This document shows, in pieces, positions 23,376 to 58,873 of a stretch of DNA of 64,000 nt (the first letter of the stretch is position 1; the number at the start of each line of letters is the position of its first letter). A program made the translations under genes and the position numbers. The DNA lies in assembly GCA_963663315.1 (NCBI GenBank), contig OY760176.1, forward strand, positions 69,822-133,821, read 5' to 3'. The notes under the pieces were generated by a model that did no database searches, was not told the DNA's origin, and saw only the letters and a list, made by a program, of their open reading frames with translations. Origin of the DNA: Arenicellales bacterium (GTDB lineage: Bacteria > Pseudomonadota > Gammaproteobacteria > Arenicellales > Poriferihabitantaceae).

Positions 23376-23614
23376 CGACCGAGTGAAAGCGTGTCTACGG
23401 GTTCCGGTCGCCGAAAGAATCGTCCGAGAGGGCGATCCCTGGAGAGGCTGCCTTCACCCGTCTTCGCGACATATACCGGTGTACTTTCAAGAAAGCCGCG
23501 GCCGCTCCAGCGCGTTTGTGCGAACTACGCCGGGTGCGTCGCTGCGTAACGGCTGCGATCCCGGCACGAGACGGGTTTGCGGCTCATAACAATGTTAGGG
23601 AGGATGTGTCTTCG

Positions 23615-25604: not shown

Positions 25605-25741
25605 TGGCTTGGCAAACCCGGCGCCGGAGGGGGCGCTGATTATGGCAGCCGGGCTGGGATCGCGGTTTCGACCGGGAACCAAGACACCGAAGCCCCTGAC
25701 CAGGGTGCTCGGACTGAGCCTCGCCGAACGGGTCGTCTGCA
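25594..25741 (+). pseudogene. 5' fragment of a second nucleotidyltransferase (IPCT-domain) gene
   Basis: ATG at 25594 overlaps the IMPase stop. Encodes ...ALIMAAGLGSRFRPGTKTPKPLTRVLGLSLAERVVC, paralogous to residues 15-52 of the 26819 protein. Homology stops abruptly at 25741. Confidence 0.7.
25683..25741 (+). repeat. 59-bp direct repeat, copy 1 (57/59 identical to 26911..26969)
   Basis: GACACCGAAGCCCCTGA(C)CA(G)GGTGCTCGGACTGAGCCTCGCCGAACGGGTCGTCTGCA, read directly from the sequence. Confidence 0.9.
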
Positions 25742-25847
25742 TGTTCGGGCCGCCAACGACAAGCTCGGCCGTGGCTCGTGTCGTTTCCCCGGCAACGAAG
25801 TGTCTGAGAATTTACACCAACCGACCTCGGTCTGGGCTCAATATCAT

Positions 25848-26759: not shown

Positions 26760-26818
26760 TGCCAAATCTGACGGCCCGGCCAACCGCGCGTCGTGCGATA
26801 AAATCATCGGAAGTCTGA

Positions 26819-42939: not shown

Positions 42940-43104
42940 TCAAGCAAATAAAGACCGGGCATGTAATTGTCCACGATGCTGTTCTGCCTGCCATAAGTCA
43001 TATTGACCTTGCTGATTGATCCAGCTTTCTGCTGATGTATTGAAAGCGATGGATAGCCGAACCGCCATTTCCGGGCTGATGCCTGCACGCTTCCAATTAC
43101 TCAT
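42940..43104 (-). pseudogene. higA: higA antitoxin relic (C-terminal half only)
   Basis: The last 54 codons of ORF 42940..43284 read MSNWKRAGISPEMAVRLSIAFNTSAESWINQQGQYDLWQAE, matching the HigA HTH helix 3 plus tail. The upstream part of the ORF is unrelated and overlaps the Cmx6-like gene. Confidence 0.6.
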
Positions 43105-43783
43105 CTTCGGATTTTGTTGCCCCGATGCTTTTATGGGGTATGAAGATACCGCAACCGAACAATCTGCCGGGACCCAATCCGTTTTGCTGCAAACGGATGG
43201 ATTCGTCGAATTCAAGGTCTGCCAGCATGACACTTCTGACCGATAGTCTGTTTGCATGTCTTTGCAGATACTTGTGTCGGCCACACAGGATTTTCTGCGG
43301 TGTTATGCCCATCTGATCGAGTTCAATGACGACTCGCTCGATAAAATCGGATTCGCTTTCCTGTTCTTCAAAAATAACCCGTCGTGCAAAAAGGGTGGAT
43401 GATCTGACCAAAAGCAGCGTGTTTGTCTGGCCTATGGTTATCGTATGACCGTCGAGATCCAGTTTCTGGCCGATCAATGTTTTTGCCTGCTCAAGACACT
43501 GTTTCGGTAAACGCAATCTCAGGCGAAGCCGTTTTGATGCGAAGAACCATTGTCGGGGACTATCGGGCTGGCGCGTCCAGCCACTTCCCGATTCCGGGTA
43601 GTTGATCAAATGTATTCCGGCTTGTGGTTCATCTTTCAACCAGGGTAACCGGTTCAGCACCGCATCGGACAGTGCGCTTGCATGATCCAGCGGTAGTGTT
43701 TTCGCTTCGATACGGAACGTTATATCCTGTATCAGGTCGGGCACAACTGATTGCGCCCGGCCCTGGGTTTCGTGCCAGATCAT
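43097..43783 (-). CDS. Cas6/Cmx6-like RAMP-superfamily protein, stand-alone
   Basis: 228 aa. DITFRIEAKTLPLDHASALSDAVLNRLPWL, RLRLRLRLP, KLDLDGHTITIG, and the C-terminal glycine-rich loop LQQNGLGPGRLFGCGIFIPHK. These fit my recollection of the subtype I-MYXAN Cas6/Cmx6 family. Confidence 0.65.
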   Translation of the reverse strand: MIWHETQGRAQSVVPDLIQDITFRIEAKTLPLDHASALSDAVLNRLPWLKDEPQAGIHLINYPESGSGWTRQPDSPRQWFFASKRLRLRLRLPKQCLEQAKTLIGQKLDLDGHTITIGQTNTLLLVRSSTLFARRVIFEEQESESDFIERVVIELDQMGITPQKILCGRHKYLQRHANRLSVRSVMLADLEFDESIRLQQNGLGPGRLFGCGIFIPHKSIGATKSEDE

Positions 43784-43797
43784 AATTCTGACCTCCG

Positions 43798-44508
43798 TCA
43801 GCCGTCGTCCGGCAGCCCGGCCTGCACTTGGTTCCGGTCAAACCACCACTGGTCCTGTACCAGCACGTCGATCACATTACGCAGTCTACCTAAGAACTTT
43901 TCCGGGTCGTCCAGTTCCATCCTCTCAATCCATTGATCGAAGGTGGCCTGATTATGGGCATCGGCATGGCGGCGGCCAACGGTGGTCAGCATCTGCATGG
44001 CATCGACATACAACCCGGCATCTTCGATCTGTTCCTTACGCAAATCATGGACATAGACTGCGGTAGCCGCCGCCACGGCGGCGCCATCGGCATCGTCAGC
44101 GGTTTCATCGATAACATGCTGCAGCATGTCGATAGTGATTTTCGGGTTGACCGGAAAAGTGACCGCGAGCCAGACCCCCTGGCCCAGCGCGGCCAGACTG
44201 TCAGCAAGATTACACTGGAACAGGAGATCACATAAATCGATCACTGCCGGCCAGTCGCGGGCAGCGAAAAGCGGGTCGAATTGTGCCCTTGCCCTTTGCC
44301 ATGCCCGATTGTGCTGTCCCAGTTCGAGCAACAGCCAGGCGGCATCCTTGTCGAGCTGCGCAATCATTACAGGGTCCGGTTCAGCCGTTGATCGTTGTTC
44401 GTTCAGGCGGGTTTCGAGCAGAGTCAGCCGGGACTGGATAGCAGCGATTGAGACGACCGTATCTGCGCCGGTTTCAGCGCCGAAGTCAAATCTGGTTTTT
44501 GGAGGCAT
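43798..44508 (-). CDS. Hypothetical helical protein (operon partner of the Cmx6-like gene)
   Basis: 236 aa with an all-alpha-looking composition. Overlaps the upstream dioxygenase gene by 23 nt. Unrecognised. Confidence 0.55.
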   Translation of the reverse strand: MPPKTRFDFGAETGADTVVSIAAIQSRLTLLETRLNEQRSTAEPDPVMIAQLDKDAAWLLLELGQHNRAWQRARAQFDPLFAARDWPAVIDLCDLLFQCNLADSLAALGQGVWLAVTFPVNPKITIDMLQHVIDETADDADGAAVAAATAVYVHDLRKEQIEDAGLYVDAMQMLTTVGRRHADAHNQATFDQWIERMELDDPEKFLGRLRNVIDVLVQDQWWFDRNQVQAGLPDDG

Positions 44509-45439
44509 TGTTGTGGTTATCGGAATGAACAGGGGTTATCGGGATATGCGTGTCGACCTGATCAAGATAGCGAACGCGATAAAGCAACCGGTTTTGTTGT
44601 CCGCACTGTTTGAATGACGTTCTGTTGTGCAGAACATTATTACAGATCAGTCCCTGGCCGGGGGACAGGGTATGTTTGATGACATATTCGGAATTCTCCA
44701 GTAAATCGGTTAACGCCGCCCGTGCCTTACTGAGAACCGGATCAGGGCGCCACAGGACAGACCGGGTACGGGCAGTATACCGCATCCACAGTTGGCCACT
44801 GATCGTGACCGCAAAAACCGGGCCGGTGACGCTTTCCCGAATGCTCCGGTTGTCGATTCGATTGGCCGGAATGGTCATCGCTTCGGGGTTCATCAGCGCC
44901 GCAATATAAGCCGGATTTTGATCCCGGAGCAGGATATAGGCGATTTCGTGATCCAGTAATTGATTCTCTCCGCCGCTGGGCGCTGATTCGACGCAATGCA
45001 GAATAAATGACTGAATCATGTCGCCCGTGTTATCGCCGTCTCCAGCAGACTGGTAATAGCCATCCGTGTGCCAGTTCAATGACCTGTCGGTATAGGGAAT
45101 AAATTTTTGTTGCCTGTGATCCCGGCTCACCCGGACTTCACTGATGCCCTGATCATCCGCATAGAGATTGGAGACGACATGCTTCAACCCCATGCACGCG
45201 CCAAGCTCCAATACGCAGCTTCGGGTCATTTCGGCATCACTGTGGTAAAAGCAGAAATTATTGCTGTCACAGGACGCTTGCAATGACTGTCGTTCGCTGG
45301 CTGAAATACTCCCGGGGTCTGCGATCCGGGTCATCAGCGCCGGCACATCGGTCACATGGCGGGCAAGTTTCCGGTCCCGCCAGCGCCGGTAAGCCGCGTG
45401 GTTGCCGAGGTCAAATGGATTGCATTGCTGCGACAGCAT
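44486..45439 (-). CDS. TauD/TfdA-family Fe(II)/2-oxoglutarate dioxygenase-like protein
   Basis: 317 aa. The HxD motif WHTDGYY and the distal His in NVLHNRTSF resemble TauD/TfdA-type enzymes. Confidence 0.65.
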   Translation of the reverse strand: MLSQQCNPFDLGNHAAYRRWRDRKLARHVTDVPALMTRIADPGSISASERQSLQASCDSNNFCFYHSDAEMTRSCVLELGACMGLKHVVSNLYADDQGISEVRVSRDHRQQKFIPYTDRSLNWHTDGYYQSAGDGDNTGDMIQSFILHCVESAPSGGENQLLDHEIAYILLRDQNPAYIAALMNPEAMTIPANRIDNRSIRESVTGPVFAVTISGQLWMRYTARTRSVLWRPDPVLSKARAALTDLLENSEYVIKHTLSPGQGLICNNVLHNRTSFKQCGQQNRLLYRVRYLDQVDTHIPITPVHSDNHNNASKNQI

Positions 45440-45455
45440 GTCCGGTCCTGAACCA

Positions 45456-46055
45456 TCAAAAAGAAGACCCGGGCTGGCTCAGGAAAGCCAGTTCTTCGGC
45501 GGTGGATTCCCGGCCCAGGACCTGATTGCGATGCGGATAACGTCCGAACCGGTCGATAATCTCGAAATGCTGGTAGGCGAATTGATAATATTCATTGAAC
45601 ATTTCCCGCTCGTCCTGTTCCACCGAATTGCGCAGATTGTCGTACAGCATCAATGATTTATGCTGCATGGCGATTTCCTCGCTATGCTCGAATGGCAACC
45701 AGGCAAACACCCGATAGACAGGCAGCAGCGTCTGGTCCCAGGCTTTGTCGACCATTTCAATCGCGAAACCGAGCGCGGCTGGATCACAGGCAAAGGATTT
45801 GGCGGTACCCCGGTACATGTTTCTCGGAAACTGGTCGAGGCAGATAATCGAGGCCAGAAGTCCACGGGTAGAGTGCTGCATTTCTGCCAGTTCACCTCGA
45901 TATACCGCAGTCGAAATACTTTCAAATCGCTCCGTGATCTGCTGGTCTGTCTGATCGTTTTTCGACCACCATATTGATTTTTTCTGGTTATTGATTTCCC
46001 GGTTTGAAGTATGGCTGCCAAACCAGAACTCAATAATGCTGTCTATTGATTGCAT
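45456..46055 (-). CDS. DUF924-family protein
   Basis: 199 aa. FWFG...W, LDQFPRNMYRG, LPFEHSE and IIDRFGRYPHRNQVLGRESTAEE blocks characteristic of DUF924. Confidence 0.8.
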   Translation of the reverse strand: MQSIDSIIEFWFGSHTSNREINNQKKSIWWSKNDQTDQQITERFESISTAVYRGELAEMQHSTRGLLASIICLDQFPRNMYRGTAKSFACDPAALGFAIEMVDKAWDQTLLPVYRVFAWLPFEHSEEIAMQHKSLMLYDNLRNSVEQDEREMFNEYYQFAYQHFEIIDRFGRYPHRNQVLGRESTAEELAFLSQPGSSF

Positions 46056-46627: not shown

Positions 46628-47962
46628 ATGACTGACGAAATCGATCAATCCGTGACCAATGAATCCGTGGAAGAATCTGTCGAAGATACTGCCGTAGAAG
46701 TTTCTTTCCATGATACTCCAATGCTCGATGAACTGGAGAATGGCCCCTGGCCGAGTTTTATATCCGGCATCAAAAAACTTCGTAACGATCATGAGGATGA
46801 GCGCGTCAACGGCGTAGCCAATGATCTGTTGGGGCAACTCGAACATTCCTACGAGACCAGAAAGGGTTACTGGAAAGGTGGCACCGTCAGTGTCTATGGT
46901 TATGGCAGTGGAATTATTCCAAGGTTCTCTGAAGTCGGCGATCAATTCCCGAAATCCAGAGAGTTTCACACACTTCGGGTGCAGCCGCCGGCCGGCAATC
47001 ATTACACGACCGATATTCTGCGCGAGCTTGCGGACAGTTGGGAAAAATGGGGTTCCGGCCTGGTGACTTTCCATGGTCAAACCGGAAACATCATGTTCAT
47101 CGGGGCTTCGACTAAAAATACGCAACATTTCTTCGATGAAATAAACGAATACGGATTCGATCTCGGTGGTGCGGGTCCTTGTGTTCGAACCGCGATGTCC
47201 TGTGTCGGCGCCGCGCGATGCGAACAGTCGTGCGCCAATGAGCAGAAGTTGCACAGAACCCTGGTCAACAACTTTACCGATGATGTGCACCGACCGGCAC
47301 TGCCCTATAAATTCAAATTCAAGATTTCCGGTTGTCCGAATGATTGCACCAATTCGATTGAACGCGCTGACTTTGCGGTGATCGGAACGTGGCGGGATGA
47401 CATCAGGGTCGACATGCCGGAATGGAAGAAATATGTCGAAGAGAAGGGTCGCAAGCATGTGATCGACAACATAATTACCCGATGCCCGACCTCGTGCCTT
47501 TCCCTGAAGGATGATGACACACTGGAAATCGAAAATGCGGATTGTGTCAAATGCATGCATTGTCTGAATGTGGTGCCCAAGGCACTCAGCCCCGGCGTAG
47601 ATAAAGGGGTTACCGTCCTGATTGGTGGCAAACGGACGCTTAAGATCGGCGATCTGATGGGAACCGTCATTGTTCCATTTATGGAAATGAAAAGTGATGA
47701 AGATTATGAGCGGATTGTTGAACTGGCGGAAGAAACCATCGAGTTCTGGGCGGAGAATGGTCTGGAACATGAGCGCTGCGGTGAAATGATTGAGCGGATC
47801 GGACTGGTCAATTTTCTCGAGGGTATCGGTGTTGATGTCGATCCGAACATGATTGCCCATCCAAGGGAGAGTTCCTACGTCAGAACCGATGGCTGGGATG
47901 ATGAAGCGAAAGCATGGTTCAGGAAGCGTGCGGAGAAACGTGCGGCTGCTCAGACAAACTAG
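46628..47962 (+). CDS. dsrA: Dissimilatory sulfite reductase alpha subunit (oxidative-type operon context)
   Basis: 444 aa. LDELENGPWPSF, siroheme/FeS Cys clusters CVRTAMSCVGAARCEQSC, ferredoxin-domain CPTSC...CVKCMHC. Has an acidic extension of about 28 aa at the N-terminus. Confidence 0.95.
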   Translation: MTDEIDQSVTNESVEESVEDTAVEVSFHDTPMLDELENGPWPSFISGIKKLRNDHEDERVNGVANDLLGQLEHSYETRKGYWKGGTVSVYGYGSGIIPRFSEVGDQFPKSREFHTLRVQPPAGNHYTTDILRELADSWEKWGSGLVTFHGQTGNIMFIGASTKNTQHFFDEINEYGFDLGGAGPCVRTAMSCVGAARCEQSCANEQKLHRTLVNNFTDDVHRPALPYKFKFKISGCPNDCTNSIERADFAVIGTWRDDIRVDMPEWKKYVEEKGRKHVIDNIITRCPTSCLSLKDDDTLEIENADCVKCMHCLNVVPKALSPGVDKGVTVLIGGKRTLKIGDLMGTVIVPFMEMKSDEDYERIVELAEETIEFWAENGLEHERCGEMIERIGLVNFLEGIGVDVDPNMIAHPRESSYVRTDGWDDEAKAWFRKRAEKRAAAQTN

Positions 47963-47980
47963 ATACCGGGAGACAGAACA

Positions 47981-49054
47981 ATGGCCAGACAAATGAGAAT
48001 GCCCATCGAATCGGGTTGTCCCGACGGGTTTCAGTATATGCATCCTGTGATGATACGCAACTTCGGACAATGGCAATGGCATGACCATCCACGACCTGGC
48101 GTGCTCAGACATGCAGCGGAGAGTGGTGAGCAGGTATGGACGGTTAAAGCGGGTACCCAGCGAATACTGGATGTCTATACGCTGCGCAAGCTTTGTGACA
48201 TCGGTGACGCGTTTGCCGATGGGCATCTGCGATTTACCATCCGCTCCAACATTGAATATTTCGTCGAAGACGAAGCGAAGGTTGAACCGCTGATCGAAGC
48301 GCTGGAAAAAGCAGGCTTTGTCGTCGGCGGAACCGCAAACTCCCTGGCTATGATCTCGCATACCCAGGGCTGGCTGCATTGCGATATTCCGGGCACCGAT
48401 GCCTCGGGTGTGGTGAAAGCGATGATGGATGAATTGATCGACGAGTTCAAGAATTGCGAAATGCCGAATCGGGTACACATGACCACCTCCTGCTGCCAGG
48501 TAAACTGTGGAGGTCAGGGTGACATAGCAATCAATATCCAACATACCAAGCCACCGCGAATCAATCACGATCTGGTATCCAATGTCTGCGAGCGCCCTTC
48601 GGTAGTGGCCCGCTGTCCGGTGGCGGCGATCCGCCCGGCGGTGGTGAATGGGAAACCGACCCTCGAAGTCGATGAGAAAAAATGTATCTGCTGTGGCGCG
48701 TGTTATCCGCCTTGTCCGCCGATGCAGATCAATGACCCTGAACATACCAAACTTGCGGTCTGGGTCGGCGGCAACCATTCGAATGCCAGATCAAAACCGA
48801 GTTTCCAGAAACTGGTGGCCGCCGGTATTCCGAACAATCCGCCGCGTTGGCCGGAAGCGACAGCAATCGTGAAACAGATTTTACGGACTTACAAGGAAGA
48901 TGCGAAAGACTGGGAGCGGATGAACGACTGGATTGATCGAATCGGCTGGCCACGGTTTTTCGAGCGTACCGGCCTGCCGTTCACCAAATACCACATCGAT
49001 CACTGGCGTGGATCGCGCAGGAGTCTGAATTCATCTACGCATATTCGGCTGTAG
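47981..49054 (+). CDS. dsrB: Dissimilatory sulfite reductase beta subunit
   Basis: 357 aa. HTQGWLHCDIP, TSCCQVNCGG, and the CICCGACYPPCP ferredoxin insert. Confidence 0.95.
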   Translation: MARQMRMPIESGCPDGFQYMHPVMIRNFGQWQWHDHPRPGVLRHAAESGEQVWTVKAGTQRILDVYTLRKLCDIGDAFADGHLRFTIRSNIEYFVEDEAKVEPLIEALEKAGFVVGGTANSLAMISHTQGWLHCDIPGTDASGVVKAMMDELIDEFKNCEMPNRVHMTTSCCQVNCGGQGDIAINIQHTKPPRINHDLVSNVCERPSVVARCPVAAIRPAVVNGKPTLEVDEKKCICCGACYPPCPPMQINDPEHTKLAVWVGGNHSNARSKPSFQKLVAAGIPNNPPRWPEATAIVKQILRTYKEDAKDWERMNDWIDRIGWPRFFERTGLPFTKYHIDHWRGSRRSLNSSTHIRL

Positions 49055-49100
49055 TGTATCAACTATAATATCTGATTTAATATTTGACCGGAAAAATAAA

Positions 49101-49433
49101 ATGGGTATAGAACTTGGTGGGCGCAGTTATGACACTGATGAGGAGGGCTACCTCGCAAATCTGTCTGACTGGAGTCCTGAGATAGCGGGCCTGATGGCCA
49201 AACTGGATGATTGCGACCTGGGTGAACATCACTGGGAGGTGATCAATTTTCTGCGTAATTATTACGAAGAATATCAAATCGCTCCTGCAGTCCGGGTGTT
49301 GACCAAGTCGATTGGCAGAACACTGGGAAAAGATAAGGGTAACAGCAAATATCTTTATCAACTGTTCCCTTATGGGCCGGCCAAACAGGCCTGTAAATAT
49401 GCCGGACTGCCAAAGCCAACAGGCTGCGTCTAG
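49101..49433 (+). CDS. dsrC: DsrC sulfur-carrier protein
   Basis: 110 aa. The C-terminal arm QACKYAGLPKPTGCV carries both conserved cysteines. HWEVINFLRNYY is also present. Confidence 0.93.
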   Translation: MGIELGGRSYDTDEEGYLANLSDWSPEIAGLMAKLDDCDLGEHHWEVINFLRNYYEEYQIAPAVRVLTKSIGRTLGKDKGNSKYLYQLFPYGPAKQACKYAGLPKPTGCV

Positions 49434-49447
49434 TCAGTTTCCTGCGC

Positions 49448-50185
49448 GTGACAATGTCGGCAATAACGATCATCTATGCAGTGATGTTCTATATCGCCAC
49501 TGCGGTGCTGGTGATTGGTACAAGTCGCAAGATAATTCAGTATTCACGCACTCCGGCGCCGCTTAAAATTCCGACAACCCCGGCACCGATCACCAAAACA
49601 GGTGTGGTTGCGCGCCTGATTCGTGAAATCGTTTTCTTCGAGAGTCTGTTCAAGGGCAGCAAGTGGAGCTGGTTATTCGGGTGGTTGTTTCATTTTGGTC
49701 TGCTGGTCGTGGCTATCCGCCATCTGCGGTATTTCACCGAACCGGTCTGGGGGGTGGCTGTGCTGACTGCGGATATCGGCGTTTATATGGGCTGGGTCAT
49801 GATTTTCGGGTTACTGGGATTGCTGATTCGCCGGATCGGGGTGGACCGTATTCGTTATATTTCTGCTCCATCCGATTATCTGATGCTGCTGCTGATTATC
49901 GCCATGGGTGTCAGTGGACTATTGGTGAAACATGTTTTTCACAGTGACATTGTCCAGTTGAAAGCCTTTATCTCCGGCTTGATCGTATTCAACTGGCAGC
50001 CATTGCCAGCCGACTTAGGCTTGCTGATTCATCTGGCGCTGGTCATCATCCTGATGTTGATTTTCCCGATCAGTAAATTGCTGCATGCGCCAGGTCTGTT
50101 TTTCAGCCCGACCCGCAACCAGGTCGACAATCCAAGAGAACGGCGCCATGTTGCAAAGTGGGCAGACTCTTCGCCCGGGAATTGA
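49448..50185 (+). CDS. dsrM: DsrM, NarI-like dihaem membrane subunit
   Basis: 245 aa. YSRTPAPLKIPTTPAP N-terminal motif and multiple TM helices. Position is between dsrC and dsrK. Confidence 0.88.
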   Translation: MTMSAITIIYAVMFYIATAVLVIGTSRKIIQYSRTPAPLKIPTTPAPITKTGVVARLIREIVFFESLFKGSKWSWLFGWLFHFGLLVVAIRHLRYFTEPVWGVAVLTADIGVYMGWVMIFGLLGLLIRRIGVDRIRYISAPSDYLMLLLIIAMGVSGLLVKHVFHSDIVQLKAFISGLIVFNWQPLPADLGLLIHLALVIILMLIFPISKLLHAPGLFFSPTRNQVDNPRERRHVAKWADSSPGN

Positions 50186-50238
50186 TGTGTGCGACCGATA
50201 TATGAAGATCAGGGCGATCATGACATGAGAAGCAGAGC

Positions 50239-51732
50239 ATGAAAGTAGATTTCCAGATTCCGGAACTGAAGGAATATCCGGAGATTCCAGTGCTGGTTAA
50301 TGGCGCGATGAAACACAGCCAGCCTTTTGTGGCTAAACCGGAATATCAGGAGCCGCTTGGTTATCCGGGTGAACTGGTTCCCGACTGGCACGATAAGGCG
50401 ATCGAAAAAATGGGGGAATTACTCGACAAGTTCCGTTCCCTGAGGGTATTCATGGATACCTGTGTCAAGTGTGGAGCCTGCACCGATAAATGCCATTACT
50501 ACCTTGGCACCGCAGACCCGAAGAATATGCCGGTGGCCCGTCAGGATCTGATGCGGGCGGTGTACCGGCGTTATTTTACCTTTGCCGGCAGGTATTTCCC
50601 GAAGTTGGTAGGGGCAGTAGATTTGACCGAAGAAGTGATCAGGGACTGGTATCGCTATTTCTATCAGTGTTCGGAATGTCGGCGCTGTTCCGGGTTTTGT
50701 CCGATCGGTATCGATACCGCTGAAGTGACGATGGCGGCGAGGGAAATCCTTGCCCATATCGGGGTAGGACAAAAATACAGTAATGAAATCATCGCCAAAG
50801 TCCACAGGATTGGTAACAACCTGGGACTGCCCGAACCGGCATTGGTGAATACACTGGAAGGACTGGAAGAAGACATTGAAGAGGAAACCGGGATTGCAGT
50901 CAGATTGCCGGTAGACCAGGAAGGCGCAGAGGTATTGCTGGTTACGCCGAGCGCCGATTTTGTCGCCGAGCCGCATATTGACGGGCTGATCGGCTACGCC
51001 AAGGTTTTCCACCGGGCCGGAATTAGCTGGACAGTCAGTTCCTATGCATCCGAAGCGGCCAACTTCGGGGTCTTTACCGGCTCCTATGAACACATGCAAA
51101 AAGTGGCAAACCGGGTGCGTACTGCGGCCCTGGAACTCGGTGTAAAGCGCATTGTGGTGGGTGAATGCGGTCATGCCTGGCGCGTGGCCTACAGTTTCTG
51201 GAACACCCTGATCGGACCTTTTGATTTTCTCGATCAGAACTATCCTGTGCCGCAACATATCTGTGAGCTTACCCATGATCTGATTCAACAGGGCGCTTTG
51301 AAGTTTGATCCTGAAGTGCATGATGACAAGGTGATCACATTCCATGACTCCTGCAATGTTTCGCGGGGATCACGTATGGGTAACATGCCGGGTGGGCAGT
51401 TCATTATCCCGCGGCAGATTATCAAGGCATGCAGTCGCCATTTTGTCGAAATGGCGCCGGATACGATTCGTGAGAATACCTTTTGTTGTGGTGGAGGGGG
51501 CGGGCTGCTGACCGATGATCTGCTGGAACTCAGGGTAAAGGGCGCGATGCCAAGGGCACAGGCGCTGCAACATGTGATTGAAGATCACGGTGTCACCCAC
51601 ATGGCCGCGATTTGTGCCATTTGCAAAAGCCAGTTCACAAAGGTTCTGCCGATGTACGGCATGGACATGGATATGGTGGTCAGTGTGCACCAACTGGTCG
51701 GTGATGCGCTGATCATGCAGACCGAGCACTAG
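50239..51732 (+). CDS. dsrK: DsrK, HdrD-like FeS/CCG-domain subunit
   Basis: 497 aa. CVKCGACTDKC and CSECRRCSGFCP ferredoxin motifs. CCG-type Cys (FCCGGGGG, CxxC). Confidence 0.9.
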   Translation: MKVDFQIPELKEYPEIPVLVNGAMKHSQPFVAKPEYQEPLGYPGELVPDWHDKAIEKMGELLDKFRSLRVFMDTCVKCGACTDKCHYYLGTADPKNMPVARQDLMRAVYRRYFTFAGRYFPKLVGAVDLTEEVIRDWYRYFYQCSECRRCSGFCPIGIDTAEVTMAAREILAHIGVGQKYSNEIIAKVHRIGNNLGLPEPALVNTLEGLEEDIEEETGIAVRLPVDQEGAEVLLVTPSADFVAEPHIDGLIGYAKVFHRAGISWTVSSYASEAANFGVFTGSYEHMQKVANRVRTAALELGVKRIVVGECGHAWRVAYSFWNTLIGPFDFLDQNYPVPQHICELTHDLIQQGALKFDPEVHDDKVITFHDSCNVSRGSRMGNMPGGQFIIPRQIIKACSRHFVEMAPDTIRENTFCCGGGGGLLTDDLLELRVKGAMPRAQALQHVIEDHGVTHMAAICAICKSQFTKVLPMYGMDMDMVVSVHQLVGDALIMQTEH

Positions 51733-51765
51733 AGATGATGACATTATATAAGTCCGGAAGCTGAA

Positions 51766-53718
51766 ATGTCAAAAGCAACAGAGCAGGAAAAAAAGCCTAC
51801 CTTCAGGAAATTCAGGGAGGGTGCGTTCAAGTGGGCAAACTATCAGGACGATATCTTTAATGAAGACACCTCCCACAAATGCCCCACTTATGTTAATCGC
51901 ACGCCGCCGTGCCAGGGCAGTTGCCCTTCAGGCGAAGATATTCGGGGGTGGTTGCAGATTATCCGTGGTATTGAAAAGCCGCCAGTCGACATGAGTTGGC
52001 AAGAGTATGCATTTCGTCGCTCGACCGATGCCAATCCATTCCCCTCGATGATGGGTCGGGTATGTCCCGCCCCTTGTGAAGCGGGCTGTAACCGCAATGA
52101 CGTGGATGACTTTGTCGGCATCAATGCAGTCGAACAATTCATTGGTGATACCGCTGTTGAGGAAAACTTCAGGTATGAGACTGCGCCACCTCTCAATCAA
52201 CAGCGTGTTGCCGTCATTGGCGGCGGGCCGGCCGGGCTGGCAGCGGCTTATCAGTTAAGGCGGAAAGGCTATGGCTCGGTGATTATCGAGAGGCAGGCGG
52301 AGCTTGGTGGTATGTTCCGTTACGGGATTCCGGGATATCGAACGCCAAGGAGTGTACTTGATCACGAGATCCAGCGGATACTGGATCTCGACGGTATTGA
52401 GGTCAGATTGAATACGCGAGTGGGTACCGACATCACTGTGCAGCAACTCGAAAATGACTATGATGCAATCATCTGGGCGATTGGCTGCCAAAGCGGCAAC
52501 GGTTTGCCTCTTAAAGGCTGGGATGACGCACCGAATTGTGTCAGTGGCGTTGCCTTCCTGGAAGCTTTCAATAAGGGCCACATGAAGATCACGGCTGAAA
52601 AGGTGGTTTGTGTCGGCGGCGGCGATACTTCGATCGACGTGGTTTCGGTGGCTCGTAGATTGGGCAAGATAGTGAATATCAATCAGAAGGATCGTCCAGA
52701 GGAAGTCATTGGCGGGTACACGGCCCATGATGCGGCGATGGTTGCACGCAGGCAGGGTTGCGATGTGACCCTGACCGCGTTGTTCAAGCGCCAGAATATG
52801 ACGGCATCGGAAATCGAGGTGGAGGACGCCACCACGGAAGGTGTCAATATCATTGATGGCGTGATGCCGGTTGAAATATTGATTGGTGACACTGGCAGAG
52901 CGGTCGGACTGAAGATGACGCAGTGTGAAATGGATAATAAAGGTGCGCCTGTGGCTGTCGAGGGTACGGAATTCGAGTTGGAAGCGGATTTGATCGTCTC
53001 TGCAATCGGACAGGGCGGTGATCTTGAAGGTATCGAGGATCTGGGTAACCAGCGAAACCTGATCAATGCCGATCCCGGTTTCCGGGTGCCTGACCGGCCA
53101 GGACATTTTGTTGCAGGAGATATTGTTCGTCCCCATTTGTTGACCACTGCGATCGGTCAAGCCTCCATCGCTGCGGCTAGCGCAATCGGTTATATGGCAG
53201 GGAACGACCCATCGAAACGCCCCAGGGTGGATGTGCATCACTTCAATTTGCTGAACAAATTGAACGAGCAGGGCCTGGAGGTGAGTGAATACGACAAAAG
53301 CCAGGTGCATGGTACCGATAGCGCCGGATTTGCGGTACATAATTACGAGGATCGTTCCGCCAATGAAATCATTTCATCAGACGATTTGTTTCTTGCCCAC
53401 TTTAAACCTTCAGCCCGAAATAAACGGACCTCGGTGGTGCCCGATGCGGATCAGGTTCTAGGGCACTTCGAGGAACGTCACATGATCCTCAGCGAAGAAC
53501 AGGCAGTGGCGGAGTCGAAGCGATGTATGAGTTGCGGCATGTGTTTTGAGTGCAATAATTGTGTGATCTACTGCCCGCAAATAGCGGTTTTCCGCGTCAA
53601 GAAAGACAAAGCCACGCTCGGTCGTTATGTCGATACCGACTACAGCAAATGCATTGGCTGTCATATCTGTGCCGATGTCTGCCCCTCTGGATATATTGAC
53701 ATGGGTCTCGGAAAATAA
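51766..53718 (+). CDS. dsrL: DsrL, GltD-like NAD(P)H:acceptor oxidoreductase with a C-terminal ferredoxin domain
   Basis: 650 aa. VAVIGGGPAGLAAA and VVCVGGGDTSID dinucleotide folds. CMSCGMCFECNNCVIYCP and CIGCHICADVCP clusters. Confidence 0.9.
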   Translation: MSKATEQEKKPTFRKFREGAFKWANYQDDIFNEDTSHKCPTYVNRTPPCQGSCPSGEDIRGWLQIIRGIEKPPVDMSWQEYAFRRSTDANPFPSMMGRVCPAPCEAGCNRNDVDDFVGINAVEQFIGDTAVEENFRYETAPPLNQQRVAVIGGGPAGLAAAYQLRRKGYGSVIIERQAELGGMFRYGIPGYRTPRSVLDHEIQRILDLDGIEVRLNTRVGTDITVQQLENDYDAIIWAIGCQSGNGLPLKGWDDAPNCVSGVAFLEAFNKGHMKITAEKVVCVGGGDTSIDVVSVARRLGKIVNINQKDRPEEVIGGYTAHDAAMVARRQGCDVTLTALFKRQNMTASEIEVEDATTEGVNIIDGVMPVEILIGDTGRAVGLKMTQCEMDNKGAPVAVEGTEFELEADLIVSAIGQGGDLEGIEDLGNQRNLINADPGFRVPDRPGHFVAGDIVRPHLLTTAIGQASIAAASAIGYMAGNDPSKRPRVDVHHFNLLNKLNEQGLEVSEYDKSQVHGTDSAGFAVHNYEDRSANEIISSDDLFLAHFKPSARNKRTSVVPDADQVLGHFEERHMILSEEQAVAESKRCMSCGMCFECNNCVIYCPQIAVFRVKKDKATLGRYVDTDYSKCIGCHICADVCPSGYIDMGLGK

Positions 53719-53739
53719 GATCAGGGCAGTGGACTGATC

Positions 53740-54141
53740 ATGATATTTTTCTTTCGAATGGCAGGACTGGTTGTGATATCTGGTATGATCGGCCTGTCTC
53801 ACTCATCCCGGTCTTATGATCAACCGCCGCAGTCAGTTCTGGATATCCCGAAGGCGGCCAAGGGTGAAAGCTGTGTTGCACCGGTTGAAGAGATGCGACG
53901 GAACCACATGGAGATGCTTTTCCACCAGCGTGATCAAACCATGTATTTTGGTGTGCGTGATGCCAAAAACAGCCTGATCGGGTGTCTATCCTGTCATACC
54001 CGGAAAGATGCCGGGGGGAAATACATTCCGATCAATGCCCCCGGCCAGTTCTGTCAGGAATGCCATTCCTATACGGCAGTAAAGATGGACTGTTTTCAAT
54101 GCCATGCCACCACTCCTGTGCGGACGACTTCCAATAAATGA
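53740..54141 (+). CDS. dsrJ: DsrJ, trihaem cytochrome c
   Basis: 133 aa with a signal peptide and three CxxCH motifs (CLSCH, CQECH, CFQCH). Confidence 0.9.
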   Translation: MIFFFRMAGLVVISGMIGLSHSSRSYDQPPQSVLDIPKAAKGESCVAPVEEMRRNHMEMLFHQRDQTMYFGVRDAKNSLIGCLSCHTRKDAGGKYIPINAPGQFCQECHSYTAVKMDCFQCHATTPVRTTSNK

Positions 54142-54878
54142 GTACTTTGAGCAAGCCCACCCACTCGCGCAGGACAGTCCTGAAAAAGTCCGGTATCTTA
54201 CTTGCCGGTCTGGTATCAGGGATAAAGCTGGTTGACCTTGCGATGGCGGCCACAAAGACCGAAGCAAGCGACCAGCTTGTCCGATGGGGCATGCTGGTAG
54301 ATGCAACCCGGTGCGCGGACGGTTGTACCGACTGTGTCGATGCCTGCAATACGGAACACGGACTGACCGGCAAAGGCCGCCCTCAGACCGATGCACAGTA
54401 TATTCGTATCGTTGATCTGAAGGATAAATCCACCGGGCATACATCTTCACTGCCGTTGATGTGCCAGCATTGTGAAACAGCGCCGTGTGTCGATGTCTGC
54501 CCGACCGGGGCATCTTTTCGAAGAGAGGATGGGGTTGTACTGGTGGATAAACACACTTGCATTGGCTGTCGCTATTGCATGTTGGCCTGTCCCTACAAAG
54601 CGCGTTCGTTCATTCACGAAAATCTCACCGATCAGGTACCAACCACCCCCCGTGGCAAGGGCACGGTGGAGTCCTGCAATTTTTGCACTCAACGGGTTGA
54701 TCGTGGCGGAACCCCTGCCTGTGTTGAAGCCTGTGATGCCAACGGTCACAAGGCCCTGGTGTTTGGTGATATGAATGACCCGGATAGCGAGTTGTCCAGA
54801 CAGCTACGGGAAAAATCCTCTGTGCAAATTCGTGCAGACCTCAACCTCAATACCGGGGTGCGTTACCATGGTGTTTGA
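54138..54878 (+). CDS. dsrO: DsrO, periplasmic FeS protein
   Basis: 246 aa. Tat signal SRRTVLKK and several CxxCxxCxxxCP ferredoxin motifs. Confidence 0.9.
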   Translation: MSTLSKPTHSRRTVLKKSGILLAGLVSGIKLVDLAMAATKTEASDQLVRWGMLVDATRCADGCTDCVDACNTEHGLTGKGRPQTDAQYIRIVDLKDKSTGHTSSLPLMCQHCETAPCVDVCPTGASFRREDGVVLVDKHTCIGCRYCMLACPYKARSFIHENLTDQVPTTPRGKGTVESCNFCTQRVDRGGTPACVEACDANGHKALVFGDMNDPDSELSRQLREKSSVQIRADLNLNTGVRYHGV

Positions 54879-54905
54879 CCTGAACCCCTGAGCCACCACC
54901 TGAGC

Positions 54906-56090
54906 TTGATGAAGCGGATCACTTATACCCCTCTGGCATATAATTGCAGGCTGTACTGGATGTTGCTGGCCGGTTTTGCGATCCTGACCTTGAACGGTTT
55001 GTATTTTGCATGGTTCATGGAACATCATGGTCATTGGGTGACCGGTATGAACAATCAGATTGTCTGGGGGTTGCCGCATGTTTTTGCGATTTTTCTGATC
55101 GTCACCGCATCGGGTGTCCTGAACATTGCATCGCTCTCATCCGTGTTTGGAAAACCCGCATACAAGGTATGGGCAAGATTGTCAGGATTGCTTGCGATTA
55201 CCTTGCTGGCTGGAGGTCTGATGGTGCTGGTACTCGACCTCGGTCGACCTGATCGCCTGATCATAGCCATGACCCACTACAACTTCAAATCAATTTTTGC
55301 CTGGAACATTTTTCTCTATACTGGGTTTGTGCTGATTGTCGTGGTCTATCTGTGGATGATGTTCGAGCCGAGGATGGCGCATAAAGTAAACCCGGTGGGC
55401 CGGGTTGCCTTTGTCTGGCGAATCATTCTGACCACCGGGACAGGATCAATCTTCGGGGTGATCGTCGCCCGTCAAGCCTATGATACCGTCATCCTGGTCC
55501 CCTTGTTCATTGCCATGTCATTGAGTCTCGGCGCCGCATTTTTCGTAACTTACCTGTTTGCCTTGAGGCAACCGGCTTTTACCGGTGATTCAGACTTGCT
55601 CCTGAAATTACGGAAGCTGCTGATAATTTTTATCTGTGCGGTTTTGCTGATCACAATGATTTTTCACATTACAAAAGTCTGGGACACGGCGACCCGGGAT
55701 TACGAGCGGTTCATTTTGCTTGACGGCGGTCTGTTGACTGCATTGTTCTGGGCAGGGTCTCTTGTGCTCGGTATGCTGGCGCCGCTTTTGCTGCTTTCGG
55801 GTACGGGCGGCGGCGCTTCGAGCCGAATCCTGTCCGCTTGTGTTCTGCACATTCCGGGCAGCCTGGCTCATCTTTATGTGATCATTATCGGTGGGCAGGC
55901 GTATCCTCTTGTGCTTTTTCAGAACAAGGAGATTTCAAGCAGTTTTTATGATGGCGCTATTGCAGGTTATTGCCCTACATTTGCTGAACTGTCGCTTGGC
56001 CTCGGCGGAATGTCGCTTGCCATTGTTGCAAGTTTGCTGGTGATCAGGGTTTTGCCCTTTTTGCCTGAAAACATCCCATCTCCCGATTAG
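54906..56090 (+). CDS. dsrP: DsrP, NrfD/PsrC-like membrane subunit
   Basis: 394 aa with about 10 TM helices. Position is after dsrO. Confidence 0.88.
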   Translation: MMKRITYTPLAYNCRLYWMLLAGFAILTLNGLYFAWFMEHHGHWVTGMNNQIVWGLPHVFAIFLIVTASGVLNIASLSSVFGKPAYKVWARLSGLLAITLLAGGLMVLVLDLGRPDRLIIAMTHYNFKSIFAWNIFLYTGFVLIVVVYLWMMFEPRMAHKVNPVGRVAFVWRIILTTGTGSIFGVIVARQAYDTVILVPLFIAMSLSLGAAFFVTYLFALRQPAFTGDSDLLLKLRKLLIIFICAVLLITMIFHITKVWDTATRDYERFILLDGGLLTALFWAGSLVLGMLAPLLLLSGTGGGASSRILSACVLHIPGSLAHLYVIIIGGQAYPLVLFQNKEISSSFYDGAIAGYCPTFAELSLGLGGMSLAIVASLLVIRVLPFLPENIPSPD

Positions 56091-56096
56091 CGCCTG

Positions 56097-57500
56097 ATGG
56101 CAACGCCAGATCAACTCATGCCTGGCTTCTATCTTTCCGCTTCCCGAAAGTCTTCCGGCAAAACGATTGTGTCAATCGGCATTTGCGCTGCTCTTGGTGC
56201 GCGCAGCAGAAAGGTTCAGCCATTCAAGAAAGGGCCTGATTACATAGACCCGCTGTGGTTGAGCCAGGCTGCCGGAACCCACTGCTATAACCTGGATTTC
56301 AATACGCAGAGTCCCGAGCAGATCGTCCGGTTTTTTTCGCGTCGATCCAGTGGTTCAGACATGGTTATCGTTGAGGGCAACAAGGGTCTGTATGATGGTG
56401 TTTCGATTGACGGGCATGACAGCAACGCTGCGCTGGCGAAACTGTTGGCGCTGCCTGTAATACTGGCGCTTGATACCCGGGGAATCACCCGCGGCGTTGC
56501 GCCGTTGCTCCTCGGATACCAGCAGTTTGATCCGGATATCCACTTCAAGGGCATTATTTTGAACAGGGTTGCTGGCCCCAGGCACGAACAAAAATTGAGG
56601 GCGAACATCGAGACGTATACCGATTTTGAAGTAATCGGCTCAATACCGAACGATGACCGCTTGTCGATCAATGAAAGGCATCTCGGGCTTACACCCAGTA
56701 ACGAGGTTGACCGGATAGAGGCCAGGATTGAGGCGATCAGGGATGTTATTGAAGACAGTGTGGATGTTGACCTCCTTGTTCCGGACAAATCAGGACCTCG
56801 ACAGGCAGAGTATGAAAGGGCAGCCAAAAGAGTGACGTCCGGGCACAAGGTAACCGATGTGTGCATCGGCGTGCCGAAAGATGCTGCATTCGGTTTTTAC
56901 TATGCGGATGATCTTCAGGCATTTTCAGACAATGGCGCCGAAATCGTCCATTTCAGTACAATAGAAGATGACGGCATACCCGAGGGACTTGATGGCTTGT
57001 TTATTGGCGGTGGTTTCCCGGAAGTTTATCTGGATGAACTCGGTAATAATTCAGCCATGCGGCAATCAGTACTCGAATTCATCAATGCCGATGGCCCGGT
57101 CTATGCTGAATGCGGCGGGCTGATGTATCTGGCAAATTCAATACGATGGAATGGCAGGCAGGTGGAAATGGTCGGCGCGTTGCCAGTTAATGTGGTGATG
57201 GAGGACAAGCCTGTGGGCCGTGGATATGTCAAATTGCGTGAAACCGGCGATTCGATCTGGGGCGAACTGGTGGCAGCGAATGAGACCATTCATGCCCATG
57301 AGTTTCACTATTCCAGAGTTGAAATAACCGGAGACATCGATCATTTTGCTTTTGAGGTCAAGCGCGGATGGGGGCTGGATGGGAAGCGTGACGGCATGGT
57401 CTGCAAAAACGTTCTGGCCGGTTATTCCCATTTGCGGTCGGCGGGTGGTGTAGACTGGGTATCGAGATTTGTTGATTTTGTAAGACAATGCAAAACCTGA
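56097..57500 (+). CDS. dsrN: DsrN, cobyrinate a,c-diamide synthase-like siro(haem)amide synthase
   Basis: 467 aa. N-terminal P-loop SSGKT and a C-terminal glutamine amidotransferase region (YAECGGLMYL, H...E). Last gene of the dsr unit. Confidence 0.85.
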   Translation: MATPDQLMPGFYLSASRKSSGKTIVSIGICAALGARSRKVQPFKKGPDYIDPLWLSQAAGTHCYNLDFNTQSPEQIVRFFSRRSSGSDMVIVEGNKGLYDGVSIDGHDSNAALAKLLALPVILALDTRGITRGVAPLLLGYQQFDPDIHFKGIILNRVAGPRHEQKLRANIETYTDFEVIGSIPNDDRLSINERHLGLTPSNEVDRIEARIEAIRDVIEDSVDVDLLVPDKSGPRQAEYERAAKRVTSGHKVTDVCIGVPKDAAFGFYYADDLQAFSDNGAEIVHFSTIEDDGIPEGLDGLFIGGGFPEVYLDELGNNSAMRQSVLEFINADGPVYAECGGLMYLANSIRWNGRQVEMVGALPVNVVMEDKPVGRGYVKLRETGDSIWGELVAANETIHAHEFHYSRVEITGDIDHFAFEVKRGWGLDGKRDGMVCKNVLAGYSHLRSAGGVDWVSRFVDFVRQCKT

Positions 57501-57539: not shown

Positions 57540-58232
57540 TTGAACCCAGAGGTTGACCAGCGATCATTAATCATGCTTTCGGATCAGGAACAATCAATTC
57601 AACAGTCCCGTATGCTGGAAAGGACTGATCTTGCCCATGAGTTGCATGATTCCCTGGCCCAGACACTGGCCAGCGTTCGTTACTACATTCGTAATCTCGA
57701 TCATGCGATTCAGGGCGGGGATGAGTGTGAAATTTACGAACTGCTGGAAGTGGTGGAAGATAACGTGGAGATCGCGAATACCGAGCTGCGTGCGCTGATC
57801 AGCCGATTTCGTGCGCCTATGGAGGAAGACAGTTTCATCCCGGCCATAGAAGGCATCATTCGCAAATACCGGGATGAGACAGGCTTGAATGCGGTTTTTC
57901 AGAACCGGCTGGGAGAGTCTGATTTTCCACCCGTCGTGGTCACCCAGGTGGTCAGGATCGTCCAGGAAGCAATGGCGAATATTCGCAAGCATGCTAAAGC
58001 GAACATGATTCGCGTGATGCTGTATTTCGAATCGGAATGCTACCATCTGCTGATCGAAGATGATGGCATCGGCTTTGATCAGGAAATGTTGCCGGACGGC
58101 AGGAATGAGCATTTTGGTTTGAAGGTAATGCGTGAACGAGCTGCCCGGATTGATGGCGAACTCGGCATTGACAGTGTTCCCGGCGAAGGCACCCGAATTT
58201 GCCTTGTATTTCCTGAACAGGGACAATTCTGA
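57540..58232 (+). CDS. Sensor-less HisKA_3-type histidine kinase (NarX/DegS class)
   Basis: H-box LAHELHDSLAQTLA, then the N-box (EAMANIRKHA) and G-boxes (EDDGIGF, GEGT). No TM or recognisable input domain. The start may be M12 at 57573. Confidence 0.8.
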   Translation: MNPEVDQRSLIMLSDQEQSIQQSRMLERTDLAHELHDSLAQTLASVRYYIRNLDHAIQGGDECEIYELLEVVEDNVEIANTELRALISRFRAPMEEDSFIPAIEGIIRKYRDETGLNAVFQNRLGESDFPPVVVTQVVRIVQEAMANIRKHAKANMIRVMLYFESECYHLLIEDDGIGFDQEMLPDGRNEHFGLKVMRERAARIDGELGIDSVPGEGTRICLVFPEQGQF

Positions 58233-58873
58233 TGAAATTGCTTGTAATTGATGATCACACATTATTCCGGGCCGGACTGAAAAGTCTGCTGGAGCGAAGA
58301 AAAATTGATGTGGTTGAGGCCGGCGATGGAGGGGCAGGGATAGCATTGCTGGCCAGGGAAGAGTTTGAAATCATTCTGCTTGACTTGAGAATGCCGGATA
58401 TGAGCGGGCTCGATGTTCTGCAGTGGCTACGACAGGCGCGGATCAAAACCCCTGTTGTCATGTTGTCGACCTCCAGCGAAGAAAAGGACCTGATTGAATC
58501 CCTGCGACTCGGTGCACAGGGTTATCTGCTGAAGGATATGGACCCGGATGATCTGGTCAAATCATTGAGAAATGTACTGGATGGAGAAACCGTTGTTGCT
58601 CCTGACCTGACCGGGGTATTGGCCAGTGCAGTCCAAAAAGAGGTGACCACCAGTAATTCGTCCACCTTTCAGTCGGTCCGTGATGTATTGACTTCAAGAG
58701 AGATGGATGTACTGAAGGATATAACAAAAGGGTGGAGCAACAAAATTATTGCCAGAGACCTCGGCATTACTGATGGCACGGTCAAGTTGCACGTCAAATC
58801 CATTCTCAGAAAACTCAATGTCCATTCCAGGGTCGAAGCCGCCGTGATTGCAGTAGAAGAAGGACTGGGTTGA
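58232..58873 (+). CDS. NarL/FixJ-family response regulator
   Basis: Receiver domain (LVIDDH, ILLDLRMPDMSG) and a LuxR-type HTH (LTSREMDVLKDITKGWSNKIIARDLGITDGTVKLHV). ATGA overlap with the kinase gene. Confidence 0.9.
   Translation: MKLLVIDDHTLFRAGLKSLLERRKIDVVEAGDGGAGIALLAREEFEIILLDLRMPDMSGLDVLQWLRQARIKTPVVMLSTSSEEKDLIESLRLGAQGYLLKDMDPDDLVKSLRNVLDGETVVAPDLTGVLASAVQKEVTTSNSSTFQSVRDVLTSREMDVLKDITKGWSNKIIARDLGITDGTVKLHVKSILRKLNVHSRVEAAVIAVEEGLG

Follow-up and report, generated by a model that had tools for sequence, protein, structure and literature searches.

The 64-kb stretch of DNA analysed here (the window) comes from an oxygen-respiring gammaproteobacterium of the order Arenicellales, whose closest relatives are sponge-associated metagenome-assembled genomes (MAGs) and which has an aa3 cytochrome oxidase cluster just right of the window. 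Positions 46628 to 57500 of its + strand hold ten consecutive dsr genes in the order dsrA-B-C-M-K-L-J-O-P-N. This order had been proposed in a first-pass annotation of the sequence, whose coordinates coincide exactly with the open reading frames (ORFs), and both the ORFs and the family models and motifs bear it out. The genes are separated by 18 nucleotides (nt) between dsrA and dsrB, 46 between dsrB and dsrC, 14 between dsrC and dsrM (47 if dsrM starts at the ATG at 49481, the start in the ENA gene call), 53 between dsrM and dsrK, 33 between dsrK and dsrL, 21 between dsrL and dsrJ, 27 between dsrO and dsrP and 6 between dsrP and dsrN, while dsrJ and dsrO overlap by 4 nt; the junctions thus span the range earlier given, from a 4-nt overlap to a 53-nt gap. 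The operon lacks dsrE, dsrF and dsrH, which in relatives fill a slot of about 1.1-1.2 kb between dsrB and dsrC. Direct reading of the sequence confirms that the spacer left at this position (49055..49100, +) is 46 nt long.

Gene identities were assigned with NCBIfam models and their curated cut-offs, Pfam domains and motif checks. DsrA, DsrB, DsrK and DsrO score above the curated NCBIfam cut-offs, as does DsrC for the DsrC/TusE family. dsrA (46628..47962, +) encodes an oxidative-type alpha subunit of 444 amino acids (aa; TIGR02064, 613 bits, cut-off 393) that is 72-94% identical to its gammaproteobacterial relatives, and dsrB (47981..49054, +) encodes a beta subunit of 357 aa (TIGR02066, 535 bits, cut-off 342). 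dsrC (49101..49433, +) encodes a protein of 110 aa (PF04358, 147 bits; TIGR03342, 158 bits, cut-off 53.5). All five subunits of DsrMKJOP were found with their cofactor motifs: DsrM (49448..50185, +), a NarI-like membrane dihaem cytochrome b (Pfam Nitrate_red_gam; best NCBIfam match NF038037); DsrK (50239..51732, +), an HdrD-like iron-sulfur (Fe-S) protein with a CCG motif at residue 416 (NF045796, 597 bits, cut-off 400); DsrJ (53740..54141, +), a trihaem cytochrome c with three CxxCH motifs (best match NF038038); DsrO (54138..54878, +), a periplasmic Fe-S protein (NF045797, 307 bits, cut-off 200); and DsrP (54906..56090, +), an NrfD-type membrane subunit (PF03916, 168 bits; best NCBIfam match DsrP). 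The best matches of DsrM, DsrJ and DsrP miss the cut-offs of the DsrMKJOP models, whose training sequences came from sulfate reducers; each of the three proteins has the domain or motif expected of it. The presence of dsrL and dsrN, claimed earlier, is supported by family matches: DsrL (51766..53718, +; 650 aa) matches an NAD(P)-binding GltD-like Fe-S flavoprotein subfamily, and DsrN (56097..57500, +), placed after dsrP as in relatives, is a CobB-family homologue of the sirohaem a,c-diamide (amidation) synthase (TIGR00379, 412 bits, cut-off 261). A promoter and terminator scan of the operon returned fewer promoter-like sites than shuffled controls and zero on the + strand, and carries no information on how the operon is transcribed. 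On the - strand, an antisense sigma-70 consensus lies at the dsrK-dsrL junction (51743-51772; TTGACA, 18 nt, TATAAT, 12/12), as a consensus match only.

The comparison of the dsrB-dsrC junction drew on loci around DsrB relatives, 80 from genomes and 80 from metagenomes, and on further loci from protein look-ups; loci are cited by number (L001 onward) where they need to be told apart. The best 160 DsrB relatives (81-96% identity) all lie in gammaproteobacterial dsrAB(EFH)CMKLJOPN operons. Among the 154 loci with dsrC downstream of dsrB, 138 carry dsrEFH between the two genes, in a gap of about 1.1-1.9 kb (2.8 kb in one case). Genes in this slot encode proteins of 130 aa (DsrE), ~135 aa (DsrF) and 100 aa (DsrH) that pass the TusD/DsrE, TusC/DsrF and TusB/DsrH cut-offs, respectively. 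Because 138 of the 154 related loci hold dsrEFH at this very position, the missing genes in the window are not a matter of chance. The remaining 16 loci have a short gap (<250 nt) without dsrEFH and belong to three lineages. Neither tblastn with the relatives' proteins nor hidden Markov models (HMMs) made from the sequences of 74-76 relatives detected DsrE, DsrF or DsrH in the 64-kb window. In the 46-nt spacer, tblastn and HMMs detected no remnant of dsrE or dsrH, and no insertion-sequence scar is present.

The largest of the three lineages, here termed clade A, comprises the window, L001-L003 and nine contigs of the window's own population. L001-L003 are GTDB species representatives (one genome per species), MAGs labelled Arenicellales or 'Candidatus Poriferihabitaceae', whose DsrB is 96% (L001 and L002) or 93% (L003) identical to that of the window. 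The spacer between dsrB and dsrC measures 46 nt in the nine other population contigs, 56 nt in L001, 60 nt in L002 and 247 nt in L003. In a neighbour-joining tree of DsrAB, the clade (L003,(window,(L001,L002))) is monophyletic and nested among Arenicellales that carry dsrEFH. The other two lineages are metagenome contigs unrelated to each other. In L136 (PYIL01029682.1, 1444-1455), dsrC follows dsrB after a 13-nt gap and the nearest DsrB sequences (~92-93%) all come from loci with dsrEFH; in L148 (Ga0310344_10061033, 1347-1565), the gap is 220 nt, the order is A-B-C-M-K and the nearest relative (89%) carries dsrEFH. Since clade A is nested among Arenicellales that all have the order A-B-E-F-H-C, the A-B-C order is derived, with one origin in clade A and at least two further, independent origins in other lineages. 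The first-pass annotation had allowed that DsrAB might fall within a lineage where A-B-C is standard; the surrounding lineage is instead one in which A-B-E-F-H-C prevails.

The order lacking dsrEFH is not an assembly artefact because the same order and the same 46-nt gap recur in independent short-read and long-read assemblies. One DsrL sequence of the window's 90% cluster occurs on 15 contigs from at least nine assemblies. Among the 15 are contigs of 2.64, 2.67, 2.82 and 3.28 Mb, of which the 2.82-Mb contig (ERZ26167216 ctg495714; 2,820,637 bp) is apparently circular, as its assembler suffix '_c' is read. Among the places listed for this sequence, 10/10 show the order A-B-C-M-K-L-J-O-P-N, followed by a kinase and a regulator where the contig reaches that far. 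Across at least ten assemblies, the operon is 97.5% identical to that of the window.

DsrC, the protein on which the missing relay would act, is canonical. Its two C-terminal cysteines, noted earlier from the sequence, are Cys98 and Cys109, the equivalents of Cys100 and Cys111 of Allochromatium vinosum, and its C-terminal arm (PYGPAKQACKYAGLPKPTGCV) is identical to that of relatives with dsrEFH. Against the TusE equivalog model it scores 121 bits, below the cut-off of 191, and A. vinosum DsrC (1YX3, 184 bits) is its nearest homologue of known structure. On these sequence features the window's protein is predicted to be a bona fide DsrC, not a TusE. Two sets of residues were considered as signatures of a changed partner and rejected. 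The substitutions K69R, A70S and K73R of clade A (window 49305-49319) fall on positions where 123 unique DsrC sequences associated with DsrEFH show at least 98% conservation; the changes are conservative, and lysines 69 and 73 are also kept in reductive DsrC from organisms without DsrEFH. Q87 (49359-49361) is common to clade A and L136 and occurs in 4% of sequences associated with DsrEFH, a coincidence with a chance probability of ~0.2 by rough estimate. A second gene of the DsrC/TusE family, 34-42% identical, lies ~4-5 kb upstream of dsrA, mostly on the opposite strand, in L056, L101, L105, L108, L116, L142, L146 and L162; the window has no such gene.

Several features mark the system as being of the oxidative type. 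The nearest relatives of DsrAB are those of gammaproteobacterial sulfur oxidisers, including cultured Thioalkalivibrio, and DsrB is 81-88% identical to counterparts from operons with dsrEFH. The DsrAB tree was computed without reductive references, and the oxidative placement is based on identity and gene context. DsrL, which the first-pass annotation had proposed to type, was examined for the DsrL-1A features described in PMC7596348 (no YRR motif, a length of about 650 aa owing to extended substrate-binding and linker domains, and Fe-S cysteines at both termini). It is 650 aa long, lacks the YRR or Y[RKN][RK] motif, keeps both N- and C-terminal Fe-S cysteines and has an NCBIfam match that splits in two near residue 303, as expected from the DsrL-1A insertion; it is also 59-77% identical to DsrL of gammaproteobacterial relatives with dsrEFH. 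DsrL thus has the features of the DsrL-1A kind. The YRR motif marks the NADP(H)-dependent DsrL-2, while DsrL-1 is described as NAD(H)-adapted, and rDsrAB (the oxidative-type enzyme) together with DsrL-1 is considered a reliable marker of sulfur oxidisers (PMC7596348). The marks of reductive Dsr systems are missing: DsrL lacks YRR, DsrAB is nearest to that of sulfur oxidisers, and dsrD, as noted earlier, was not found after dsrB in the window, where the 46-nt spacer leaves no room for it. dsrT was likewise not found in the operon. From oxidative-type DsrAB, a DsrL with DsrL-1A features, the missing dsrD and a canonical DsrC, we infer that the pathway still works oxidatively.

No clade member has a disrupted reading frame among the ten genes, and all cofactor motifs are intact. 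Within the clade, the pairwise ratio of nonsynonymous to synonymous substitution rates (dN/dS) is 0.02-0.23 over the ten dsr genes (0.05 for dsrA, 0.04 for dsrB), at a dS of 0.4-1.1 among the window, L001 and L002 and with saturation against L003. dsrA, dsrB, dsrC, dsrK and dsrL are as constrained as in pairs that carry dsrEFH, and the values for dsrJ, dsrO, dsrP and dsrN are 0.09-0.23, compared with 0.05-0.17 in pairs of similar divergence with dsrEFH. Relative to control clades, no gene has an excess of clade-specific substitutions at conserved sites, except for a mild excess in DsrK. Strong purifying selection and the canonical DsrC argue that the operon is functional; it is complete and has been kept by selection long after dsrEFH left.

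A second accessory module has also disappeared from the operon. An IscA-like ORF, the expected DsrR, follows dsrN in 18/18 relatives that reach past dsrN, including the Arenicellales loci L005, L007, L009, L033, L014 and L017. The absence of dsrR had been claimed from the first reading of the window and holds: a kinase gene begins 39 nt after dsrN, no IscA-like ORF occurs in the 64 kb, and L001-L003 and the window population likewise lack dsrR after dsrN. The ORFs that follow dsrN encode a NarX/NarQ-like histidine kinase (HisKA_3 and HATPase_c domains of Pfam) and a NarL-type response regulator (Response_reg and GerE), together spanning 57540..58873 (+), and then housekeeping genes. The kinase (57540-58232, +) consists of the dimerisation/ATPase core only, about 210-230 aa, without a sensor or membrane segment. 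In L066, where a 467-aa homologue comes after dsrR, only residues 242-451 align with it. Its dN/dS of 0.10-0.18 indicates purifying selection. A single deletion may have removed dsrR and the sensor half of the kinase together, as judged by comparison with L066 only, a distant relative; the loci of close relatives stop short of this region.

Known Dsr systems share some features with that of the window and differ in others. The operon of A. vinosum (dsrABEFHCMKLJOPNRS) shares the ten genes in the same relative order, oxidative DsrAB, a DsrL of the DsrL-1A kind and a DsrC with two cysteines, whereas the window lacks dsrEFH between dsrB and dsrC, lacks dsrR and has the kinase and regulator directly after dsrN. 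The dsrABEFHCMKLJOPN(R) operons of other Arenicellales and marine gammaproteobacterial oxidisers (L004-L080, L087-L172), with DsrB 81-88% identical, follow the same order outside the missing modules but keep dsrE, dsrF and dsrH, and also dsrR where the locus reaches it. Cable bacteria and Desulfurivibrio alkaliphilus are likewise Dsr-based sulfide oxidisers without canonical dsrEFH near their dsr genes; however, they have reductive-type DsrAB, no DsrL, and type II dsrEFH next to yeeE and tusA (PMC13293266), in contrast to the oxidative DsrAB and DsrL-1A of the window. DsrD-encoding SAR324 bacteria have dsrEFH at a locus other than that of dsrAB and so provide a precedent for relocation, although they belong to another phylum and combine reductive and oxidative genes, including dsrD, in another operon order (PMC11406059). 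In Escherichia coli, the TusA-TusBCD-TusE relay for 2-thiouridine in tRNA uses homologues of DsrEFH (TusBCD) and DsrC (TusE), which makes a TusBCD-type complex a candidate stand-in donor; that relay is biosynthetic rather than energy-conserving, and the window's DsrC falls below the TusE cut-off and has the second cysteine. In the literature consulted, gammaproteobacterial dsr operons of the oxidative type that lack dsrEFH are not described, nor is the metabolism of this lineage. rDsrA, DsrL-1 and DsrEFH have been described as co-occurring strictly (PMC7596348), and our own arithmetic, based on the counts of PMC13293266, puts the share of oxidative-dsrAB genomes that carry one DsrEFH type or the other at ~97%.

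The best account of these observations begins in the common ancestor of the species group, where dsrEFH was removed from between dsrB and dsrC, and dsrR from its place after dsrN, without a detectable remnant. In the pathway that remains, sulfane sulfur would be put on Cys109 of DsrC and then oxidised to sulfite by rDsrAB and DsrL-1A, with electrons passing to NAD+; DsrC would be recycled by DsrMKJOP, and sirohaem would be amidated by DsrN. DsrC would be loaded by a sulfurtransferase whose gene lies outside the operon. As to the identity of this donor, we infer a roughly even chance that it is a TusA-fed relay of the DsrE family at another place in the genome, for instance a dsrEFH that has moved or been replaced by horizontal transfer, a dsrEFH of type II, or TusBCD. 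DsrE is essential in vivo in A. vinosum (PMC3397948), some SAR324 bacteria keep dsrEFH apart from dsrAB and dsrEFH seems prone to horizontal transfer (PMC11406059), and the apparent lack of DsrEFH in cable bacteria proved to be a divergent type II DsrEFH located by yeeE and tusA (PMC13293266), all of which make a donor encoded elsewhere plausible.

The searches for such a relay weigh against it. The readable part of the genome amounts to ~99 kb, roughly 4% of at least 2.52 Mb, and consists of the window, 8.6 kb to its right, 6.5 kb to its left and 19.6 kb surrounding a further insertion-sequence copy. No DsrE, DsrF or DsrH was found in these ~99 kb, nor within 10 kb on either side of the operon in ~15 clade contigs, and the rest of the window holds no sulfur-trafficking genes. 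No second copy of dsrEFH or tusBCD occurs within 8-10 kb on either side of the dsr operon in 166 loci. Orphan dsrEFH was not encountered either: 9/9 mid-size ENA contigs reached through DsrE or DsrH matches hold dsrEFH in the operon. Clade contigs are also missing from the top 120 database matches to Arenicellales profiles of DsrH and DsrE and from the matches listed for the DsrE of L005, searches that did list chromosomes with dsrEFH (L014, L017, L021). The power of these searches is low: in a leave-clade-out control, 3/13 sequences reached the top 120 for DsrH and 0 for DsrE, and the negative result is nearly uninformative because an unsampled sister lineage would mostly score below the top 120. 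Finally, plain deletion is a simpler account than repeated relocation for three independent removals of dsrEFH, one of them in a clade that also lost dsrR. A reduced symbiont genome (the first contigs measured 1.3-2.1 Mb) was considered and dropped, as the window's proteins lie on a 2.52-Mb contig and clade contigs measure 2.6-3.5 Mb.

A donor of the DsrE family encoded elsewhere is slightly favoured over direct loading by TusA. In the latter case dsrEFH would be truly lost, no relay of the DsrE family would exist in the genome, DsrC would be loaded directly by TusA, a rhodanese, a cysteine desulfurase or another carrier, and rDsr-based sulfur oxidation in this lineage could do without DsrEFH. 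We regard this as a possible but less probable account. Sulfur transfer from TusA to DsrC has been obtained in vitro with both cable-bacterial and A. vinosum proteins (PMC13293266), and sulfide persulfurates DsrC chemically in vitro (PMC3397948). Independent removal of dsrEFH in three lineages, the departure of dsrR from the same operon, a junction free of remnant and scar, and the failure to find DsrE, DsrF or DsrH in the ~99 kb and flanks fit direct loading as well. So would the ~3% of oxidative-dsrAB genomes that, by the same arithmetic, have neither DsrEFH type, although fragmented MAGs could explain these. On the other hand, deletion of dsrE or mutation of DsrE Cys78 abolishes sulfur oxidation in A. 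vinosum (PMC3397948), the conservative substitutions K69R, A70S and K73R give DsrC no clear signature of a changed partner, and the sequence read covers ~4% of the genome.

The other two accounts are far less probable. The first-pass annotation had named, besides dsrEFH elsewhere and another route of sulfur delivery to DsrC, a third option, namely that the enzyme works in another physiological direction, and this is the least supported of the three in view of the oxidative-type DsrAB and DsrL-1A. Taurine or other organosulfonates would then yield sulfite, for example through the TauD-like DsrQ, and rDsrAB, DsrL, DsrC and DsrMKJOP would reduce or disproportionate it; DsrEFH would not be needed. 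The TauD-like dsrQ does lie divergently upstream of the operon and has been given a speculative role in sulfite release (PMC7596348), in vitro the A. vinosum complex of rDsrAB and DsrL-1A can use NADH to reduce sulfite (PMC7596348), sulfate reducers use DsrABC and DsrMKJOP without canonical DsrEFH, and taurine is an important substrate in sponge symbioses (PMC10356861). However, dsrQ is also found upstream of dsrA in most relatives with dsrEFH and hence is not tied to the loss; DsrL has the features of the NAD(H)-adapted DsrL-1A, while NADPH is argued to be necessary for reduction in vivo (PMC7596348); the operon has neither dsrD nor dsrT; and, apart from the mild excess in DsrK, no gene has the excess of substitutions expected of a functional shift. 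We consider this direction improbable. An inactive relic, decaying after the loss of an essential partner, is effectively refuted and is given hardly any weight. Two accessory modules are gone and dN/dS of dsrJ, dsrO, dsrP and dsrN is somewhat above that of pairs with dsrEFH, but no clade member has lost any of the ten frames over synonymous divergence that reaches saturation, every gene has a dN/dS far below 1, the cofactor motifs are complete, and the operon is conserved at 97.5% over at least ten assemblies.

The finding matters because dsrEFH, together with oxidative-type dsrAB and dsrL, is widely used as a genomic marker of sulfur oxidation, and its main weight depends on whether dsrEFH is also missing from the rest of the genome. 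If dsrEFH has merely been relocated, the finding is an ordinary one that counsels caution in marker- and synteny-based annotation of MAGs. It is possible that a whole sponge-associated Arenicellales clade has no relay of the DsrE family at all (type I, type II or TusBCD) and yet uses rDsrAB, DsrL-1A, DsrC and DsrMKJOP. In that event reverse-Dsr sulfur oxidation would not always require DsrEFH, and the 'strict' association of rDsrAB, DsrL-1 and DsrEFH, on which the prediction of sulfur oxidisers from genomes relies, would have natural exceptions that arose at least three times. The clade would then be a natural experiment in which DsrC can be loaded in another way, with a bearing on the debated steps of sulfur delivery and on the reading of the direct transfer from TusA to DsrC seen in vitro. 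The loss of dsrR and the two further contigs without dsrEFH suggest that this operon sheds its accessory genes more readily than has been assumed. Long-read assemblies of clade members, close to complete, are publicly available.

Insertions were also observed in related operons, on other ENA metagenome contigs of 69 kb to 1.09 Mb. A Band_7/NfeD pair lies between dsrA and dsrB in L085 (2547-3991) and in L170 and L171 (1499-2886), and a large gene resembling type ISP restriction-modification enzymes follows dsrM in L085 (7625 onward) and L167 (10328-14743). The dsr operon is structurally plastic in the lineages of L085, L167, L170 and L171.

Upstream of dsrA, a divergent block of four genes (43097..46055, -) was annotated with Pfam and NCBIfam. 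It encodes a Cas6/Cmx6-like protein of 228 aa (43097-43783, -; TIGR02807, 105.7 bits, cut-off 98.85; PF09559, E-value 4e-56), an unannotated ORF of 236 aa (43798-44508, -), the TauD-like DsrQ (44486-45439, -) and, between dsrQ and dsrA, a DUF924 protein (45456-46055, -). The name dsrQ is that of Lenk et al. 2012, as cited in PMC7596348. The Cas6-like gene, the 236-aa ORF and dsrQ lie divergently upstream of dsrA in many of 80 relatives, with or without dsrEFH; tblastn in these 80 gave ~60 matches each for the Cas6-like and TauD-like proteins and 19 for the 236-aa ORF. The DUF924 gene, in contrast, occurs only in the window population and L001, and not in L003 or other relatives. The Cas6-like gene is found upstream of dsrA in many of L001-L080, L085, L086 and L167-L178. 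The window has no CRISPR array, and a Cas6-family RNA-processing protein tied to an operon for sulfur oxidation is a puzzling association.

The rest of the window contains transporters, housekeeping genes and a 27-kb mosaic of mobile elements. The mosaic (16000-43000) reaches a G+C content of 0.65, compared with ~0.51 in its surroundings, and encodes four tyrosine integrases, IS3-type and Mutator transposases, a type I restriction R subunit, a RES toxin with its antitoxin, and Toprim and YAcAr proteins. It ends directly at the conserved block upstream of the dsr operon, is lacking in the close contigs L173-L178 and coincides with an assembly breakpoint in ERZ28669063. Its high-G+C island also holds a gene cluster on the + strand (23516-28183) that encodes a myo-inositol-1-phosphate synthase, a protein of the inositol monophosphatase family, a PfkB kinase and a fused nucleotidyltransferase/CDP-alcohol phosphatidyltransferase. 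From its gene content this cluster looks like a pathway for solutes of the di-myo-inositol-phosphate type, which are best known from thermophiles.

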